From positions 1 to 19,329 of the IMG/VR virus record IMGVR_UViG_2802429248_000011: a stretch of 19,329 bases of DNA. One strand, 5' to 3'. The notes under the pieces were generated by a model. That model had not been told where the DNA came from. It saw only the letters and a program-made list of their open reading frames with translations, and ran no database searches. Of this stretch, positions 2,141 through 12,653 are shown piece after piece. Made by a program: the position numbers and the translations under genes. Origin of the DNA: a virus (Duplodnaviria > Heunggongvirae > Uroviricota > Caudoviricetes). The number at the start of each line of letters is the position of its first letter. Positions within the stretch are counted from its first letter, which is position 1.

Positions 2141-2622
2141 AAACAGATTTCACGCTCAATCTCACGACGAGTCATGAGACCTTTCCATTGCTTACCGCCA
2201 GCATATGTCCAGCGACGTAGCTGATCACATGCGCCTTTGATATCGCCCTGGTTTATTTTGCGAAGAAGCGTCGATGTTCTGAAATTGCCAGCACCCACGT
2301 TGTAAACGAATGAGTAAAGAGCGCCGCGCGTTGTTTCCGGTATATCGACTTTGATGTACGGGTTAATTTGTCTGGCGACAGTGGCAAGGTCTTTATTCAA
2401 GAGTGCTTTGCATTCTGCTTTGGTATACGTTTTACCGAGCATGATGTCTTTTCCTGTATGCCCGTGACATACAGTCCATACACCAACAATATCTTTGTAT
2501 GGTATGTAGCTGACACCTTCCAGACCATCGTTACCACTTGGGCCAGTGATTAACACTGATGCTATAGCAATTGCTCCGCCACCAATAGCAGCAACAACGG
2601 CTTTTCGTAATGATGGAGGCAT
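2128..2622 (-). CDS. R: SAR endolysin (phage 21 R-type lysozyme)
   Basis: 164 aa. N-terminal Gly/Ala-rich SAR segment ([20 protein letters not shown]) and the Glu35/Asp44/Thr50 catalytic positions (..[22 protein letters not shown]..). Near-identical to the phage 21 / DLP12 lysozyme as recalled. Confidence 0.92.
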
Positions 2623-2837
2623 TATTCACCTCTCGCAGCCTTACGCCTGTCTTCTTTAATCTTGAAATAAAGATTTGTCAGATACGTCAGCAGGCCAAAA
2701 ACCAGGCTACCCAGCACACCGATTGCAGCCCACTGTGACGGAGTTACTTTATCGAGTAACTGCAATGCCCAGAAACCAGCATTACCCGCCGATGTGCCAT
2801 AGGCAACACCTGTTGTTAACTTATCCATTGATTTCAT
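2622..2837 (-). CDS. S: Pinholin (phage 21 S-type holin) with dual-start motif
   Basis: 71 aa beginning [26 protein letters not shown]... with two TM segments. The Met1-Lys-Ser-Met4 dual start is typical of S21 antiholin/holin. Its stop overlaps the R start. Confidence 0.9.
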
Positions 2838-3056
2838 ATCCTCACCCCGATGTACACGGATGGTGCAATATGTTTGAAAATATCGGAGTCTACGGGGTAG
2901 TTTTTACAGCACACGTTGTTCTCAACGGCGCTAAAAAAACATACACATTAAAAATGTGGTTAATTATTTTGAAAGAAAATCATATATTAATTAATAATAC
3001 GAGAAATGTTTTCATATTTAGTGTACTGTATACGGCCATTTATACAGGAAAAGCCT

Positions 3057-3227
3057 ATGTCAGAACGTAAAGACTCAAAATCACGCCGTAATTATCTCGT
3101 TAAATGTTCCTGCCCAAACTGCACCCAAGAGTCAGAACACAGTTTTTCAAGAGTACAAAAAGGTGCCCTTTTGATCTGCCCTCATTGCAACAAAGTATTC
3201 CAGACAAATCTTAAAGCTGTAGCCTGA
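3057..3227 (+). CDS. Small zinc-ribbon protein (two CxxC pairs), moron gene
   Basis: 56-aa ORF MSERKDSKSRRNYLVKCSCPNCTQESEHSFSRVQKGALLICPHCNKVFQTNLKAVA. AGGAAA Shine-Dalgarno 6 nt upstream; TTGAAA / TAATAA promoter-like hexamers at 2969-2997. Confidence 0.6.
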   Translation: MSERKDSKSRRNYLVKCSCPNCTQESEHSFSRVQKGALLICPHCNKVFQTNLKAVA

Positions 3228-3309: not shown

Positions 3310-3590
3310 AATATTGTGGTGCTTTTTGTGAGAGTCATCCACTTACGCACTTTGTTTTGCTATGCCAGCAGTTAGCTTCTGCTGTAAAACTATTCATGCA
3401 GCAAACCTGCACTTCACCACAATGGTTAGCATACTTTTCCTGATTAAGTTATTACCAAATATGCTGGCCATTGTTTCATGTATTGGACCGCCTTACTCTT
3501 TATTAAAGAGATCCAATATTCACCACTCTGTCTGTATCTCCACTCAGGCATCAGCCTTCTTCGTTATCGTATACAGACAAACTATGAATT

Positions 3591-3806
3591 TTAATCATTA
3601 ATGATGACATTTGCTGCTGCAGGACCTTTAGCACCACTCTCTACAGAGAAGGTAACCTTTTGACCTTCAAATAAGGTTCGATAATTATCATTCTGAATCG
3701 CAGAAAAATGCACAAACACATCTTTACTACCATCAACAGGAGAAATAAAGCCGAAACCTTTATCAGCGTTAAACCATTTTACTAAACCAGTCATTTTATT
3801 TGACAT
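3591..3806 (-). CDS. cspB: Cold-shock protein, CspA family (CspB-like)
   Basis: 71 aa [67 protein letters not shown]...; canonical cold-shock-domain RNP motifs; long upstream untranslated region as in csp genes. Confidence 0.9.
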
Positions 3807-4105
3807 TCTACATTCCTTAACTTGAGCCTTTCGGCATAAATGGTTTGTATAACAGAAACGACTTCGTACTTAATTGGAGAGACTCAAAGAAGGAATAAGT
3901 GAATAACACCTGAAATGAGAACTGCTTTAGTAAACTACTTCGTATATCGTCTGTTCTTCAAACCGACGCAATCATTAACGCATAGTTGAACATATGAAGC
4001 AATGTTTATTTTAGACATCCAGCCATCTTCAACCCCATCAAAAAACTATAGCTTTCTTCAGGAACGTGTGTATAGTGCGCCAAGTTATCAGTATTAAGGA
4101 ATTTT

Positions 4106-4318
4106 TTGTCCCGTAAAATGACAGGAATTGTCAAAACCTTTGACTACAAAAGCGGCAAAGGTCTTATCATACCATCCGATGGCCGTATCGATGTCCAGCT
4201 GCACGTTTCTGCTCTCAATCTCCGCGATGCAGAAGAAATTACCACAGGATTACGCGTGGAATTTTGCCGAATCAATGGTCTACGTGGACCTTCAGCTGCC
4301 AATGTTTATCTTTCATGA
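4106..4318 (+). CDS. cspF: Cold-shock-domain protein, CspF/CspH-like
   Basis: 70 aa [70 protein letters not shown]. Divergent from the cspB-like gene, as in the Qin prophage arrangement. First codon is TTG with AGGA upstream. Confidence 0.85.
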
Positions 4319-4372
4319 GCTATATTAAAGCTTTTACTTTAAGCCCCATCGGATCACACATGGAGAGTTTTT

Positions 4373-4462
4373 ATGAATAACCCCGTCTGCCTTGATGACT
4401 GGTTGATTGGCTTTAAAAGCTTATGCTGTACTTTGGCCGTAATAGCTCTGCTAATAATATAA
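4373..4462 (+). CDS. Putative 29-aa hydrophobic peptide (speculative small protein)
   Basis: GGAGAG Shine-Dalgarno 8 nt upstream of the ATG; encodes [29 protein letters not shown]. Lies between the cspF-like gene and its terminator. Confidence 0.25.
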
Positions 4463-4611
4463 TAAGCAGACTCATTGTGTTTAGGGACATTGTACTGGAA
4501 GAAAACATTTTAAACATCAGGCAAATAACTAAGTCACCAGCTAAATAATAAGTTAACAGACATGGGTCCCGGGATGAGGTTCAACATCACCATTGCCCCA
4601 TTTAAAGCACA

Positions 4612-4637
4612 AAACCCGCTCATCAGCGGGTTTTCTA
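4612..4637 (+). terminator. Intrinsic terminator, plus strand
   Basis: AAACCCGC-TCATCA-GCGGGTTT followed by TTCTAATTTCTTT. Confidence 0.6.
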
Positions 4638-5049
4638 ATTTCTTTCTAAACATCAGATATACAAAGCCCATCATTGAGGGAATCTTATCCATATTTTTTG
4701 AAAAATGCAAGCATCACGTTGCCATCTTCATTGAAAAACCTTTATCGTGTTACTTTTATCAATTGCACTTCAGCATAGAGTTATCCCAGGCAGCACTTTA
4801 AAGACTTCTACATTACACACACCTTGTCTCCCCTTCTCGTCATATCTGCAAGACCGATATGCATGACGCAGTACATACGCTGAACTGCTTTATCCATCAG
4901 CATATTCTAGTGCTAAAGCGACTTCAGTAGCAGAAGCAAAATTCTGCTACTGTGCCAAACAGGAGTAAACGTCATTTTATGTAATGTTGATTGAGTGGTC
5001 ATAGTATCACCTCAATAACAGCTCTTCGCCCTATCATTGAAAGCATATC

Positions 5050-5058
5050 TGCTATAAT
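5050..5058 (+). promoter_or_regulatory. Extended -10 promoter element (TGcTATAAT)
   Basis: TGCTATAAT lies about 32 nt upstream of the ATG at 5090; no good -35 hexamer, consistent with an extended -10 promoter. Confidence 0.35.
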
Positions 5059-5089
5059 TAAAAAGCCACTTAACATCAGGACTTCAAAC

Positions 5090-5275
5090 ATGACTTCAAA
5101 TCAATCTGAAAACGAAATAGTTAATACTGTCAAAAAATATGCATCATGTGCTGACGATGCTTTGCAGGCAGGCAAAGAAAACGTTAAAGATAAATTTAGA
5201 AATTATCCACTGACTAGCGTGGTGGTCGCTCTAAGCATAGGGTTAACGCTTGGTTTTATTATTGGCAGAAAATAA
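5090..5275 (+). CDS. Small C-tail-anchored membrane protein (ElaB/YqjD/DUF883-like)
   Basis: 61 aa MTSNQSENEIVNTVKKYASCADDALQAGKENVKDKFRNYPLTSVVVALSIGLTLGFIIGRK. AGGA Shine-Dalgarno 8 nt upstream; C-terminal TM anchor ending in basic residues as in the DUF883 family. Confidence 0.55.
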   Translation: MTSNQSENEIVNTVKKYASCADDALQAGKENVKDKFRNYPLTSVVVALSIGLTLGFIIGRK

Positions 5276-5338
5276 TCTTAAGCCTCCCATAAGTCGTACA
5301 CAATCACATCTACCAATTAATGTTCCATTAGTAAAAAA

Positions 5339-5357
5339 CCACCTCCTGTGGAGGTGG
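5339..5357 (-). terminator. Intrinsic terminator (strong on minus strand, weak on plus)
   Basis: CCACCTCC-TGT-GGAGGTGG: perfect 8-bp stem, A6 on the plus side upstream (T6 on the minus strand after the stem), TTT on the plus side. Confidence 0.5.
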
Positions 5358-6403
5358 TTTAAGGATAGCAACAAAACACAACCTACTTTAAACGGCTATA
5401 TTCTGCTATATCTAAATAATAGGTTCTCTTTTATCATCCGGTGAAAAAGGGTTCAATGGTTGCCCCTCATCAGGACGCTCAACGGGCTCATCATCAGGCT
5501 TACGGTCATCAAAATCTGGATGTTCTGACATATTCCACCCTAGTATTTTTATGCAGGAAAGATTATTTACTCTTTCCGGTTGTCTTTTTTATTATCCTTA
5601 CCCTTACTATCCTCATTGTTTTTATTCCTGTCATGAGATTTTTCATTTGAATCACTTACATATAATGTATTCATGGGGACTCCAGTTTTTTAACAGCACA
5701 ATGCTGTATCTGTAATTATAGATGCAATTAATCATTATGGTATGTATGTTTCATGCACAAATCAGAAACGCATCTAGTGCTTTAATTAATATGGATTTTA
5801 TTGCTGTAGATTTACAAAAATTTTCATAATTAACCAGCAATATAAGACAAATATCTCATAACATGAGGGAAATCAAGCTCATTTAAAGCAATTTATAATT
5901 TTCATCCTACTATTTTCCCTACACTGCCAACACCAGTTTCGTCGCAACACTCTGACAAGACACCTATAAAATCAGTTTCGTTATCACCTTAATTTTCTTC
6001 ATGGGTAACAAACCGGTAATACATCGATAGCCTGATTGATGCACGTTACTGTTACCTCTTCCCTGCATCAGGATGGCTTCCCAAGATGATATGGTTAATC
6101 ACACTGGAACATTCACGCATAACCGTTTCCTTCATATCCTGCCGTTTTAGCATGTCTTTTCCCCTTCTTGTTAATATCAATGACTAACACAAATCTAAAA
6201 AAGCCAGCAATGTAAAAAAACTGCATTCACGGCAACCAGAATGGTTACCGTTCTGCACAAAGTTTATGTCCACAAAAAAACCACTCTGCGCGGCTTATTG
6301 ATATTTTCCACCGGTATGCATATAAGGCTCATCATTGGAAAACTCTTTGCACGTTTCCTTAGAAAATACAATCGTTATGTCGCCATCGTTCGGTGAAAAT
6401 CTT

Positions 6404-7156
6404 TTATCTTGTCACTTTTCTCAGTTGTGCTTCTGCATACGCTTCTTCCTGCCAGCACTTTGTTACCAGTTTATCAATGACGTCCGCATACCCCTTGTAC
6501 CACTGATAATCTGTCAGGTCCGGTACCAACTTCTGGACATGACGTCGTGCCAGTGTGGTCGGTAAACGACTAAACCTGTTTCCATTACAACGCCCACAAA
6601 TCTTATAAACCGGTACGCCATGAAGCCGGGTTCTTTTTTCATCCAGGACAATACCTTTACCCTTACACCCTCTGCACGCTGTGCTGACTTCGCCCTTACC
6701 ATGGCAATGCTGACATAGTTCCTTCCCCCATTCTTCCTTGATAACAGATTCCCCACTTCTGTAGTGTTTCACCACTTCGCGCAATACATTATGAAATCCC
6801 GTACCTGCACAATGTTCACAGCGAGCCTTACTTGCCGCAGACCTGGAATAATCAGCAAAGGCAAAATTCACAAGGTAAGGGATGATCTGTAACCGGGTTT
6901 CTTCACTCAATTTGTTCAATATCGGGTTATCCAGTGCCATCGCGTAATTGAGCAGACCTTCAATCGCAAACTGAGGGTTCTGAACACCAACTTTTGCCAG
7001 AAATAAGGCAAACCCAAGCGGTGCTTTCGACTGCACCATCCCCTGCGCAGCCATCACATCCGTAATTGTTAAACCACCAGAGCCTGTCGCCGGTGCGTCA
7101 TCGCTCAGTTTTGGTGATTTCGGGGAGTAATATTTCGGTAAGACTTCAAGGTTCAT
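6404..7156 (-). CDS. Q: Late-gene antiterminator Q (lambda Q family)
   Basis: Translation from ATG 7156 (GGAGA Shine-Dalgarno) begins MNLEVLPKYYSPKSPKLSDDAPATGSGGLTITDVMAAQGMVQSK..., closely paralleling the lambda Q N-terminus as recalled. Cys-rich zinc-binding pairs (CEHCAGTG, CQHCHGKG, CRGCKGKG, CGRCNGN). Longest ORF is 6404..7198. Confidence 0.88.
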   Translation of the reverse strand: MNLEVLPKYYSPKSPKLSDDAPATGSGGLTITDVMAAQGMVQSKAPLGFALFLAKVGVQNPQFAIEGLLNYAMALDNPILNKLSEETRLQIIPYLVNFAFADYSRSAASKARCEHCAGTGFHNVLREVVKHYRSGESVIKEEWGKELCQHCHGKGEVSTACRGCKGKGIVLDEKRTRLHGVPVYKICGRCNGNRFSRLPTTLARRHVQKLVPDLTDYQWYKGYADVIDKLVTKCWQEEAYAEAQLRKVTR

Positions 7157-7169
7157 GCTCGTTCTCCAC

Positions 7170-8165
7170 TTACGCCAGCACGCCAATTGCCAGCGCACGA
7201 TCGATAAAACGAAATATCAGCTTCAGCTGGGAGCCATACTTCTCTTCAAATGCCACGGTATCCGCATGCAGCTCGTCGTGATGCTTTCTGCACAAAGGCA
7301 ACACAAAGAGGTCATGCGCTTTTGTAGCCATTCCACCCTGACCGTGGCCTATCAGGTGGTGGGGATCATCAGCAGGCTTTCCACAACATGCACACGGCTG
7401 TGTCTTAACCCAGCGCGTGTACTTTTCGTTAACCCAGCGGCGACGTTTGGGGCGTAACATAAAAGACTCCGGCGACTCCGGATCCACTTTCAGCGCCAGC
7501 ACCTTTTTCGCTTTATCCTGGATAATGCTGGTGGCAGGAACCGAAGGCACAAGGTCACTTTCCCGGGTGACAGACGGCACAACAGGCTTCGGTAATCTCA
7601 GTGCCTTACGGGCTGCACTTTCCGGTAAGGCATCCGCCAGGTCATTACGAATCAGCCACCAGCACAGTTCCGGCATTGTCACAACGTGACTATCATCAAA
7701 ACCGAGATCCCGACGCACAACAGACAACACCCAACGGGCACAGTTATCCGTTGCCATTGATTCCAGCCGTTCCGTGAACTGATCGCGCAGCTGGTTATCG
7801 CAGTGCCAGCACAGACGGATTGCGCCCGGGGCGTGTCGCATTGTGGTCATGTTCTCGCTGTGCCAGTCGGAATGAGGCCACTGGCAGCCCTTTTCACGAA
7901 GTAACCAGCTTTCAAGACATTCCACGCCACCAGCACGACGGATCACTGCCTCATTGCGGAACACGGCCCGAACGGCAGGATCATCCGCCAGCGGTTGTGA
8001 TGCCGCCGGAACGGCACCACTGGCGAAAGATGAATAACGCTCCGGCTCAGGCTCCAGCAGGACACGCCCCTGCATAAACAGGGGCATCAGCTCTGAACCT
8101 GGCCTGAACAATACGATCCCCATACGCGGGGCAATTTCAGGGGTCAGCAGTGCTCTCACGGTCAC
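7170..8165 (-). CDS. DUF968-like protein with C-terminal HNH/zinc-finger-like Cys/His motif; start codon uncertain
   Basis: 331-aa ORF. C-terminal ...TQPCACCGKPADDPHHLIGHGQGGMATKAHDLFVLPLCRKHHDELH... resembles the DUF968 family found just upstream of Q in E. coli lambdoid prophages (memory-based). Several candidate starts. Confidence 0.7.
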   Translation of the reverse strand: MTVRALLTPEIAPRMGIVLFRPGSELMPLFMQGRVLLEPEPERYSSFASGAVPAASQPLADDPAVRAVFRNEAVIRRAGGVECLESWLLREKGCQWPHSDWHSENMTTMRHAPGAIRLCWHCDNQLRDQFTERLESMATDNCARWVLSVVRRDLGFDDSHVVTMPELCWWLIRNDLADALPESAARKALRLPKPVVPSVTRESDLVPSVPATSIIQDKAKKVLALKVDPESPESFMLRPKRRRWVNEKYTRWVKTQPCACCGKPADDPHHLIGHGQGGMATKAHDLFVLPLCRKHHDELHADTVAFEEKYGSQLKLIFRFIDRALAIGVLA

Positions 8166-11994: not shown

Positions 11995-12653
11995 GGGCGT
12001 ACCTCCCATTGATTACGGCGAAAAGCAGTGTGATTCAGGCTGGTTTCAGCCTCATGGAATGCTCCAATGCAGCTCTCGTAGTACCGCATTGTGCGTAGAC
12101 TTAACCCAAGCTGAAGCATCATCAGGCCATCAAGGGTGATGTAATAACCACGCAGGGAGTCACCATAGATGTGGTAAGTACCCGGTATGAAGTTGCGGGT
12201 AAAAAATTCGCGCGAGCAGTTCAGATACTCGATTTTGTCGACGATGTTCTGGTGCATGCGCTTAAAGTGGCAGGCAACATGCAGGGAGAAAATAACAGCT
12301 TTGCCGTTGACGACTTCGATTTTGAGGAATGGGGAAGTTGGGACTGTAGCCATGATGGCAGCCTCCTTGATCGGTGAAAAACTTCCACCACCGGAGCTGC
12401 GAAACTCATGGGTGGTGAACTGAACAGGGTTCGCAGTACCGGCGATCAAGGAAACCGGCGAGCCTTTCGGCTCCCCTGCCCAGCCCACCATAATTCTGGC
12501 GTGCGTGAGCGCAGACGATAAAAAAGACGCTGGCGCGTCGTATATCGCCTTGATCAATTCCGGGCTGCGACCCCCGGCACCCGCTTTATAAGGTGCTGGA
12601 ACAGTGTAACGTCCCGAAATTACAGAATCAATATTTTGGCTTGAAACATTCAT
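11991..12653 (-). CDS. Hypothetical protein with Gly/Ser/Pro/Ala-rich N-terminal region and folded C-terminal domain; start codon uncertain (open frame extends to 12887; strong internal Shine-Dalgarno + ATG at 12353)
   Basis: 897-nt open frame. The first in-frame ATG (12653) lacks a Shine-Dalgarno; an internal ATG at 12353 has AAGGAGG 8 nt upstream. C-terminal domain ...YYITLDGLMMLQLGLSLRTMRYYESCIGAF... is not confidently assignable. Confidence 0.5.
   Translation of the reverse strand: MNVSSQNIDSVISGRYTVPAPYKAGAGGRSPELIKAIYDAPASFLSSALTHARIMVGWAGEPKGSPVSLIAGTANPVQFTTHEFRSSGGGSFSPIKEAAIMATVPTSPFLKIEVVNGKAVIFSLHVACHFKRMHQNIVDKIEYLNCSREFFTRNFIPGTYHIYGDSLRGYYITLDGLMMLQLGLSLRTMRYYESCIGAFHEAETSLNHTAFRRNQWEVRP

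Follow-up and report, generated by a model that had tools for sequence, protein, structure and literature searches.

ynfS, a translated gene for a 29-residue hydrophobic protein downstream of cspF in Qin-type lambdoid prophages

Introduction

Is the 29-codon open reading frame (ORF) that follows a cspF-like cold-shock-domain gene in a lambdoid prophage a real gene, and, if so, does it encode a toxin? The original prediction, made from the letters of a 19,329-nucleotide stretch of viral DNA (the window), described the ORF as encoding a hydrophobic peptide that resembles small membrane peptides, including type I toxins, and as probably co-transcribed with the gene before it. Our analysis supports this first reading in part: the ORF is a real hydrophobic small gene, plausibly co-transcribed with cspF, and its likeness to toxins is unsupported.

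Sequence signals of the open reading frame

Because the window contains 202 ATG-initiated ORFs of 20 to 50 codons, a short ORF alone is uninformative. Sixteen of these ORFs have a Shine-Dalgarno-like motif, and only 1 of the 202 combines such a motif with a strongly hydrophobic 13-mer. This single ORF must be the one at 4373..4462, because that ORF meets all three criteria (length, motif, and hydrophobic 13-mer). Across 100 first-order Markov simulations of the window, the number of ORFs with both a Shine-Dalgarno-like motif and a hydrophobic 13-mer was 0.05 ± 0.22, compared with 1 observed. The combination exceeds the chance expectation.

The ATG, the stop codon, and the length of the ORF are as originally claimed (Table 1), and a second TAA directly follows the stop codon. 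The hydrophobic character of the C-terminal half was also borne out: the last 13 residues have a Kyte-Doolittle mean of 3.14, and the whole 29-aa product has a GRAVY of 1.47. The GGAGAG motif is present as described, but the spacing of 8 nt given for it was slightly off. The gap between the hexamer and the ATG is 5 nt (7 nt if counted from the GGAG core), which is still in the usual working range.

Table 1. Coordinates of ynfS, its transcription unit, and neighboring genes in the window
Feature	Position	Strand	Evidence or remark
P21-type holin	2622-2837	-	
cspB-like gene	3591-3806	-	
cspF-like cold-shock-domain gene, 70 aa	4106..4318	+	Pfam CSD, 75.9 bits; TTG start as in the K-12 annotation
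cspF-ynfS spacer, 54 nt, contains the Shine-Dalgarno sequence	4319..4372	+	Terminator scan, alignment
Shine-Dalgarno sequence GGAGAG	4362..4367	+	Read directly from the sequence
ynfS, 29 codons	4373..4462 (stop included)	+	ATG 4373, TAA 4460-4462, read from the sequence
3′ untranslated stretch, 148 nt, from the ynfS stop to the terminator	4463..4610	+	Most variable part of the unit
Intrinsic terminator, 10-bp stem AAAACCCGC...GCGGGTTTT and T-rich tail	4611..4644 (hairpin 4611-4634)	+	Terminator scan
Q antiterminator	6404-7198	-	

Identity with ynfS of Escherichia coli K-12

The ORF is ynfS, which encodes a small hydrophobic protein and belongs to Qin-type lambdoid prophages; the original prediction did not recognize it as a named and annotated gene. 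All 29 of its 29 residues are identical to those of YnfS of E. coli K-12 (b4750, Qin cryptic prophage), and the DNA differs from the K-12 gene at 1 of 90 positions, a synonymous difference (TGC for TGT at Cys6). The peptide matches the Pfam family PF23697 (YnfS) with 80.9 bits, where the cut-off is 27 (E = 4.7e−23), with residues 1 to 29 aligned to positions 1 to 29 of the 29-position model, and no other Pfam family was matched at E ≤ 10. In an exact-sequence look-up, the peptide fell into a cluster that carries the UniProt name YNFS_ECOLI and is found on more than 1,000 contigs. Searches of NCBIfam, PADLOC, and PDB with the peptide returned nothing, and the PHROGs search gave a chance-level match alone (E = 0.12).

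The surroundings of the gene agree with this assignment. A megablast search of positions 3500-4700 against complete E. coli genomes yielded approximately 1,400 genomes with cspB, cspF, and a "hypothetical protein" in this arrangement at approximately 96% identity, K-12 included, and the stretch from cspF through ynfS to the terminator aligns to K-12 with 97% identity. In the curated K-12 record, ynfS (b4750, 1642122-1642211) comes after cspF. RefSeq annotates cspF at the homologous place, and both RefSeq/PGAP and the curated K-12 record have a plus-strand gene at the place of ynfS. The gene is, in short, already known: it has a name, entries in RefSeq and UniProt, and a Pfam family to itself, and its translation has been demonstrated in K-12.

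Evidence for translation

VanOrsdel et al. (2018) list YnfS, with exactly the same sequence, among 36 small proteins that were seen by immunoblotting after chromosomal, in-frame tagging with SPA at the C terminus in K-12; their Table 1 entry for it reads "cspF / ydfT, > > <, 29 aa" (PMC6001520). The tagged protein accumulates in ordinary LB cultures, and YnfS was also an unidentified positive of a tetracycline ribosome-profiling screen (PMC6001520). Weaver et al. used YnfS as a comparison protein with "strong start peaks" in the presence of retapamulin and Onc112 and with a detectable tagged product (bioRxiv 10.1101/511675). Elsewhere, a tiling-array study found ynfS among the transcripts lowered by fluoride (PMC10100675), and a 2024 survey of the E. 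coli y-ome placed it among the uncharacterized genes of the Qin prophage (PMC11551758). Beyond detection, the papers searched report no function, localization, phenotype, or toxicity for YnfS.

Given this translation evidence from the identical K-12 gene, ynfS is a genuine translated small gene. The original prediction had allowed that the frame might turn out to be neither translated nor conserved in related prophages. Translation is documented in K-12, and of the 121 loci that we extracted, 120 keep an intact frame, the exception being a start loss (ATA in place of ATG).

The strand of the gene deserves a separate comment, because the phage HannyBb record (PP925841.1) places a minus-strand "hypothetical protein" across this position. 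The corresponding 34-codon ORF (4413..4517, minus strand) is intact in the window, in K-12, and in strain M-17, and it could in principle be the real gene. However, the plus-strand frame is favored by RefSeq/PGAP, the curated K-12 record, the in-frame C-terminal SPA tag, and the profiling of start codons. Moreover, the HannyBb deposit is densely filled with minus-strand "hypothetical proteins" of 30 to 55 aa and misses cspB, cspF, and ynfS, which is typical of over-calling, and its minus-strand calls are probably an annotation artifact. The minus-strand ORF was also not recovered in two loci of the 2H10 lineage, a weak point that comes from a string filter on the translation only. We regard it as extremely improbable that the minus-strand ORF is the gene at this locus.

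The cspF-ynfS transcription unit

The hairpin at 4611-4634 is the sole plus-strand terminator-like structure from the cspF-like gene to position 5100. It starts 149 nt past the ynfS stop codon, it forms in the predicted fold, and its stem is kept in all aligned lineages. No terminator-like hairpin was found by the scan in the 54-nt spacer between cspF and ynfS. The terminator at 4611..4644 is presumed to be the end of the cspF-ynfS transcript; its symmetry is such that it could also work on the minus strand. Because the only terminator past the cspF-like gene comes after ynfS, co-transcription of the two genes is plausible. The original prediction, which had called co-transcription probable, correctly placed ynfS before the terminator.

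A scan for sigma-70 promoters detected none inside cspF that would serve ynfS. By eye, a TATATT can be seen at 4321-4326, without a convincing −35 hexamer, and it might at most be an internal promoter. We consider it likely that ynfS would share the transcript of the cspF-like gene or have a weak promoter close to the 3′ terminus of cspF, and that transcription would stop at 4611-4634. The GGAGAG sequence of ynfS would then drive independent initiation of its translation.

According to a review, expression of cspF is very low and no CspF protein has been detected (PMC4956666). That YnfS is readily detected, yet cspF is weakly expressed, hints at a separate promoter for ynfS or at differences in translation or stability. 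In long-term stationary phase cspF is raised, and a cspF deletion causes no competitive defect (PMC7406224).

Distribution and variation of ynfS

The 332-nt unit that extends from the cspF stop codon to the terminator is present at ≥80% coverage in 1,406 of 5,426 complete E. coli genomes, and it is carried by the isolated phages HannyBb, PhiR42_1, PhiR63_1, and 2H10. Among 185,579 species-representative genomes, a degenerate DNA pattern for residues 8 to 19 hit Escherichia and Shigella only, with two records from E. coli and one from Shigella flexneri, and a Salmonella enterica variant of YnfS is present in the protein collection. All copies are at least 89% identical in DNA. The degenerate DNA patterns returned near-identical copies only.

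Two main lineages of ynfS can be distinguished, one of the K-12 type and one of the 2H10 type (A22T and I29M, with or without N3K and V23L). The GGAGAG motif is invariant in 119 of 119 related loci, and the ATG is kept in 118 of the 119. Disrupted alleles also exist: in one, a nonsense change (K15*) is marked by PGAP as an internal stop. Approximately 220 E. coli records match the terminator-proximal part of the query only, and in the 2 of these that were examined, a deletion takes the 3′ end of cspF and all of ynfS.

Some strains have a frameshifted cspF and an intact ynfS, and others have lost ynfS and the 3′ end of cspF in a single deletion (frameshift and deletion loci: L134, 965-1178, from E. 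coli O84:H7 Trh52; L008 and L009, 999-1201). Since frameshift-only and joint-deletion alleles both occur, cspF and ynfS decay independently in cryptic prophages.

When the K-12 and 2H10 lineages are compared, the differences amount to 0 of 213 positions in cspF, 3 of 54 in the cspF-ynfS spacer, 2 of 90 in ynfS, 22 of 147 in the 3′ stretch up to the terminator, and 66 of 753 in the Q gene, and the region is a mosaic. The ynfS gene shows significantly lower divergence than the 3′ stretch next to it (Fisher's test, P = 0.0014). The difference points to some constraint, but a recombination breakpoint close by could also play a part in it. In a set of 26 haplotypes, the density of polymorphic sites is 0.13 in ynfS, 0.15 in cspF, 0.17 in the spacer, and 0.23 in the 3′ stretch. 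The events within ynfS comprise 8 to 9 non-synonymous or disruptive changes and 1 synonymous change, with no departure from the neutral expectation; these selection tests involve few substitutions and are partly biased, as the search pattern required residues 6 to 15. The replacements within the hydrophobic segment are conservative (A22T/G/V/S, V23L, and I29M).

This variation neither proves nor excludes selection on the YnfS peptide, and the evolutionary support for a selected protein is weak. It is the experiments in K-12 that make the case for a real gene. It is possible, if on balance unlikely, that ynfS is translated without a selected function, as a young, lineage-restricted ORF (a proto-gene) that has a favorable ribosome-binding site, lies on a prophage transcript that is expressed, and gives a product that is tolerated but not used. 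The narrow species range with near-identical copies, the substitution counts consistent with neutrality, the existence of nonsense, start-loss, and deletion alleles, and a polymorphism no lower than that of the spacer or of cspF would all fit such an origin. On the other hand, the lower divergence of the ORF relative to the 3′ stretch, the conservative nature of the replacements in the hydrophobic segment, and the essentially invariant Shine-Dalgarno sequence and start codon argue against it, as does the persistence of the unit in phages that can still be isolated, beyond decaying prophages.

Variation at the nucleotide level also bears on the proposal that the RNA itself is the functional element, with the ynfS region serving as a regulatory 3′ part of the cspF transcript, where translation would affect mRNA stability or terminator efficiency and the peptide would be incidental. 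A single synonymous site in approximately 120 loci is nucleotide-level conservation of the kind expected under constraint on an RNA, and the 346-nt region folds somewhat better than its shuffled versions (z = −1.82, with 4 of 100 shuffles as good). However, this z-score is marginal, no Rfam family matches the region, and conservation is lowest just where one would look for such an element, from the end of the ORF to the terminator. Low synonymous variation is, in addition, what one expects of recent copies exchanged by recombination, as in this mosaic region. We consider an RNA element of this kind improbable.

Prophage neighborhood

The window is a lambdoid prophage with an integrase, a cI-like repressor, replication genes, and DUF968, and the cspB, cspF, and ynfS group is located between Q and the holin gene, in the late region. 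Late transcription would run from Q through a candidate tR′ (6296→6278) to cspB and the lysis genes, as judged from the gene layout. The candidate tR′ is a terminator-like hairpin with a T-run at 6278-6296 (minus strand), approximately 100 nt downstream of the Q stop codon; if it is the tR′ of the late operon, it would imply a short pR′ leader transcript such as the 6S RNA of lambda.

The cspB-like gene is covered by a full-length match to the Rfam cspA thermoregulator (RF01766, 157.9 bits, 3526-3967, minus strand), which spans its 5′ leader and coding region; because of this match, we conclude that the prophage copy of cspB keeps a cold-sensing mRNA leader. Between the holin gene and cspB, a small zinc-ribbon protein similar to YnfU is encoded at 3006-3227 (plus strand; Pfam YnfU, 106.9 bits). 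Its ORF has 73 aa from the first ATG, and the K-12 annotation has 56 aa.

The cspF-like allele (4106-4318, plus strand) differs from that of K-12 at 16 of 213 positions (7.5%), including G14Y and T22I in the protein, whereas the flanking genes are nearly identical to those of K-12 (cspB, 2 of 216; ynfS, 1 of 90), which makes for a sharp recombination mosaic. This cspF-like allele was found in 3 IMG/VR loci. On the other side of the ynfS terminator, the 1.76 kb at 4640-6400 that separate it from Q are absent from the Qin prophage of K-12, and only 40 complete E. coli genomes contain them at ≥80% coverage. The stretch is almost unannotated, with one 61-aa hypothetical protein. For one ORF within it (4991-5275, plus strand), whose product has a transmembrane-like tail at its end (...VVVALSIGLTLGFIIGRK), Pfam gave no match.

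In the early region, adjoining genes of the Rha/Ash type, Rfam matches to the C4 antisense RNA (12408-12495, minus strand, 85 bits) and to the Hfq-binding small RNA isrK (12520-12596, minus strand, 57.6 bits) lie side by side. To judge from these matches, this region looks like an antisense-controlled module of the P1/P7 or Gifsy kind.

Is YnfS a type I toxin?

YnfS could be pictured as the membrane-depolarizing toxin of a module similar to type I toxin-antitoxin systems, with an antisense RNA that normally keeps its synthesis low. Its small size and hydrophobic character fit those of type I toxins; TisB and ZorO have the same length as YnfS (29 aa). The prophage that carries ynfS also carries hokD. 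However, YnfS has no Pfam match to Hok, Ldr, Ibs, TisB, ShoB, or similar families, and NCBIfam and PADLOC are empty for it, as noted above.

The original prediction had suggested a search for an antisense RNA partner. Rfam models matched no RNA on either strand of positions 4300-4600 at permissive thresholds, and on both strands of 3800-5000 (E ≤ 5) they gave nothing but weak, chance-level matches on the terminator. A weak minus-strand promoter-like site (4483→4454, 9 of 12 matches) lies near the 3′ end of ynfS, but the region has 7 promoter-like sites where 5.2 ± 2.0 are expected from shuffled sequences, which is not above chance, and no minus-strand terminator that fits this site was found nearby. 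The unpaired probability predicted for the ynfS Shine-Dalgarno sequence (0.34-0.35) is close to the regional mean (0.39-0.43), so the sequence is not predicted to be sequestered.

The behavior of the gene also argues against a repressed toxin. From its position, ynfS looks like a downstream cistron after cspF and not like a stand-alone, tightly repressed unit. In K-12, YnfS-SPA accumulates in LB, and unstressed cells show heavy ribosome occupancy at its start codon (PMC6001520; bioRxiv 10.1101/511675). In the literature that mentions ynfS, there is no report of growth arrest or membrane depolarization upon its overexpression. With no match to a toxin family or an antisense RNA family, no antisense promoter signal above chance, and no predicted masking of the ribosome-binding site, the proposed resemblance to type I toxins did not hold up, and we consider a type I toxin very improbable.

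A different form of antagonism can be derived from the gene layout, in which Q-dependent late transcription would cross ynfS in the antisense direction. Because the unit opposes late transcription, Q-modified polymerase would make RNA antisense to both ynfS and cspF during lytic growth. YnfS might, on this basis, be a membrane effector of the prophage (a superinfection-exclusion, abortive-infection, or conditionally toxic peptide) that is made in the lysogen and shut off in lytic growth by the convergent, Q-antiterminated late transcript acting as the "antitoxin." Such a system would be an unconventional, protein-antiterminator-controlled relative of type I systems; we consider it quite improbable.

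A proposed small membrane protein of the prophage

We are highly confident that the best explanation of the locus is ynfS, an accessory ("moron"-type) gene of Qin-like lambdoid prophages. Its product would be anchored in the inner membrane by its C terminus and would be made from a cspF-ynfS transcript. Residues 11 to 29 of YnfS sum to approximately −1.0 kcal/mol on the biological hydrophobicity scale of Hessa 2005 (with no position weighting). The uninterrupted hydrophobic run is 13 to 14 residues long, and a full membrane span must take in Lys15 and Ser16; Lys15 could sit at the membrane interface. It seems reasonably probable that YnfS would enter the inner membrane via residues from about 10 or 11 to 29, leaving its short acidic N terminus (MNNPVCLDD) outside the bilayer.

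If YnfS has a selected function and is inserted in the membrane, we speculate, at somewhat short of even chances, that it would act as other small membrane proteins of enterobacteria do and modulate a larger partner protein in the membrane by binding to it, which may benefit the lysogen or the phage. A defined membrane or phage-host role, if found, would add one more example of a small protein and overturn nothing. For gene discovery, ynfS means little, as the gene and its translation are known. It is, nonetheless, a convenient case for study: it encodes one hydrophobic helix, is found in a quarter of E. coli genomes and in phages that can be isolated, and adjoins cold-shock-domain genes in the late region.

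Comparison with known systems

The closest known counterpart is YnfS of K-12, which matches the gene of the window in its protein, in the divergent cspB, in the cspF upstream, in the shared terminator downstream, and in its Shine-Dalgarno sequence and start codon. The two loci differ in that Q of K-12 follows approximately 100 nt past the terminator, whereas 1.76 kb lie between the terminator and the Q antiterminator gene in the window, and in the 7.5% divergence of their cspF alleles.

Small ORFs directly downstream of a cold-shock-domain gene are also known as YnfR, YnfQ, and YmcF, which are located next to cspI and cspG, either in the same prophage as ynfS or in its chromosomal paralogue. 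They share this position with YnfS but have no sequence similarity to it. YnfR-SPA increases after cold shock (PMC6001520); cold induction has not been reported for YnfS. We found no YnfS-like ORF downstream of cspH, the paralogue of cspF, or elsewhere in the window.

Like YnfS, the products TisB, ZorO, Ldr, Ibs, ShoB, and HokD are short, hydrophobic, predicted to be membrane active, and often encoded by prophages. YnfS differs from them in having no sequence relationship to any of them, no match to an antisense RNA family, and a ribosome-binding site that is not predicted to be masked.

The small inner-membrane regulators AcrZ, MgtS, KdpF, and CydX are chromosomal, are conserved across genera, and each have a known partner. 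They have no homology to YnfS, which is prophage-borne and restricted to Escherichia and Shigella, plus the Salmonella variant. Like YnfS, however, they are shorter than 50 aa, have one hydrophobic helix, and were found by the same tagging and ribosome-profiling approaches, and their mode of action is the one that we propose, tentatively, for YnfS.
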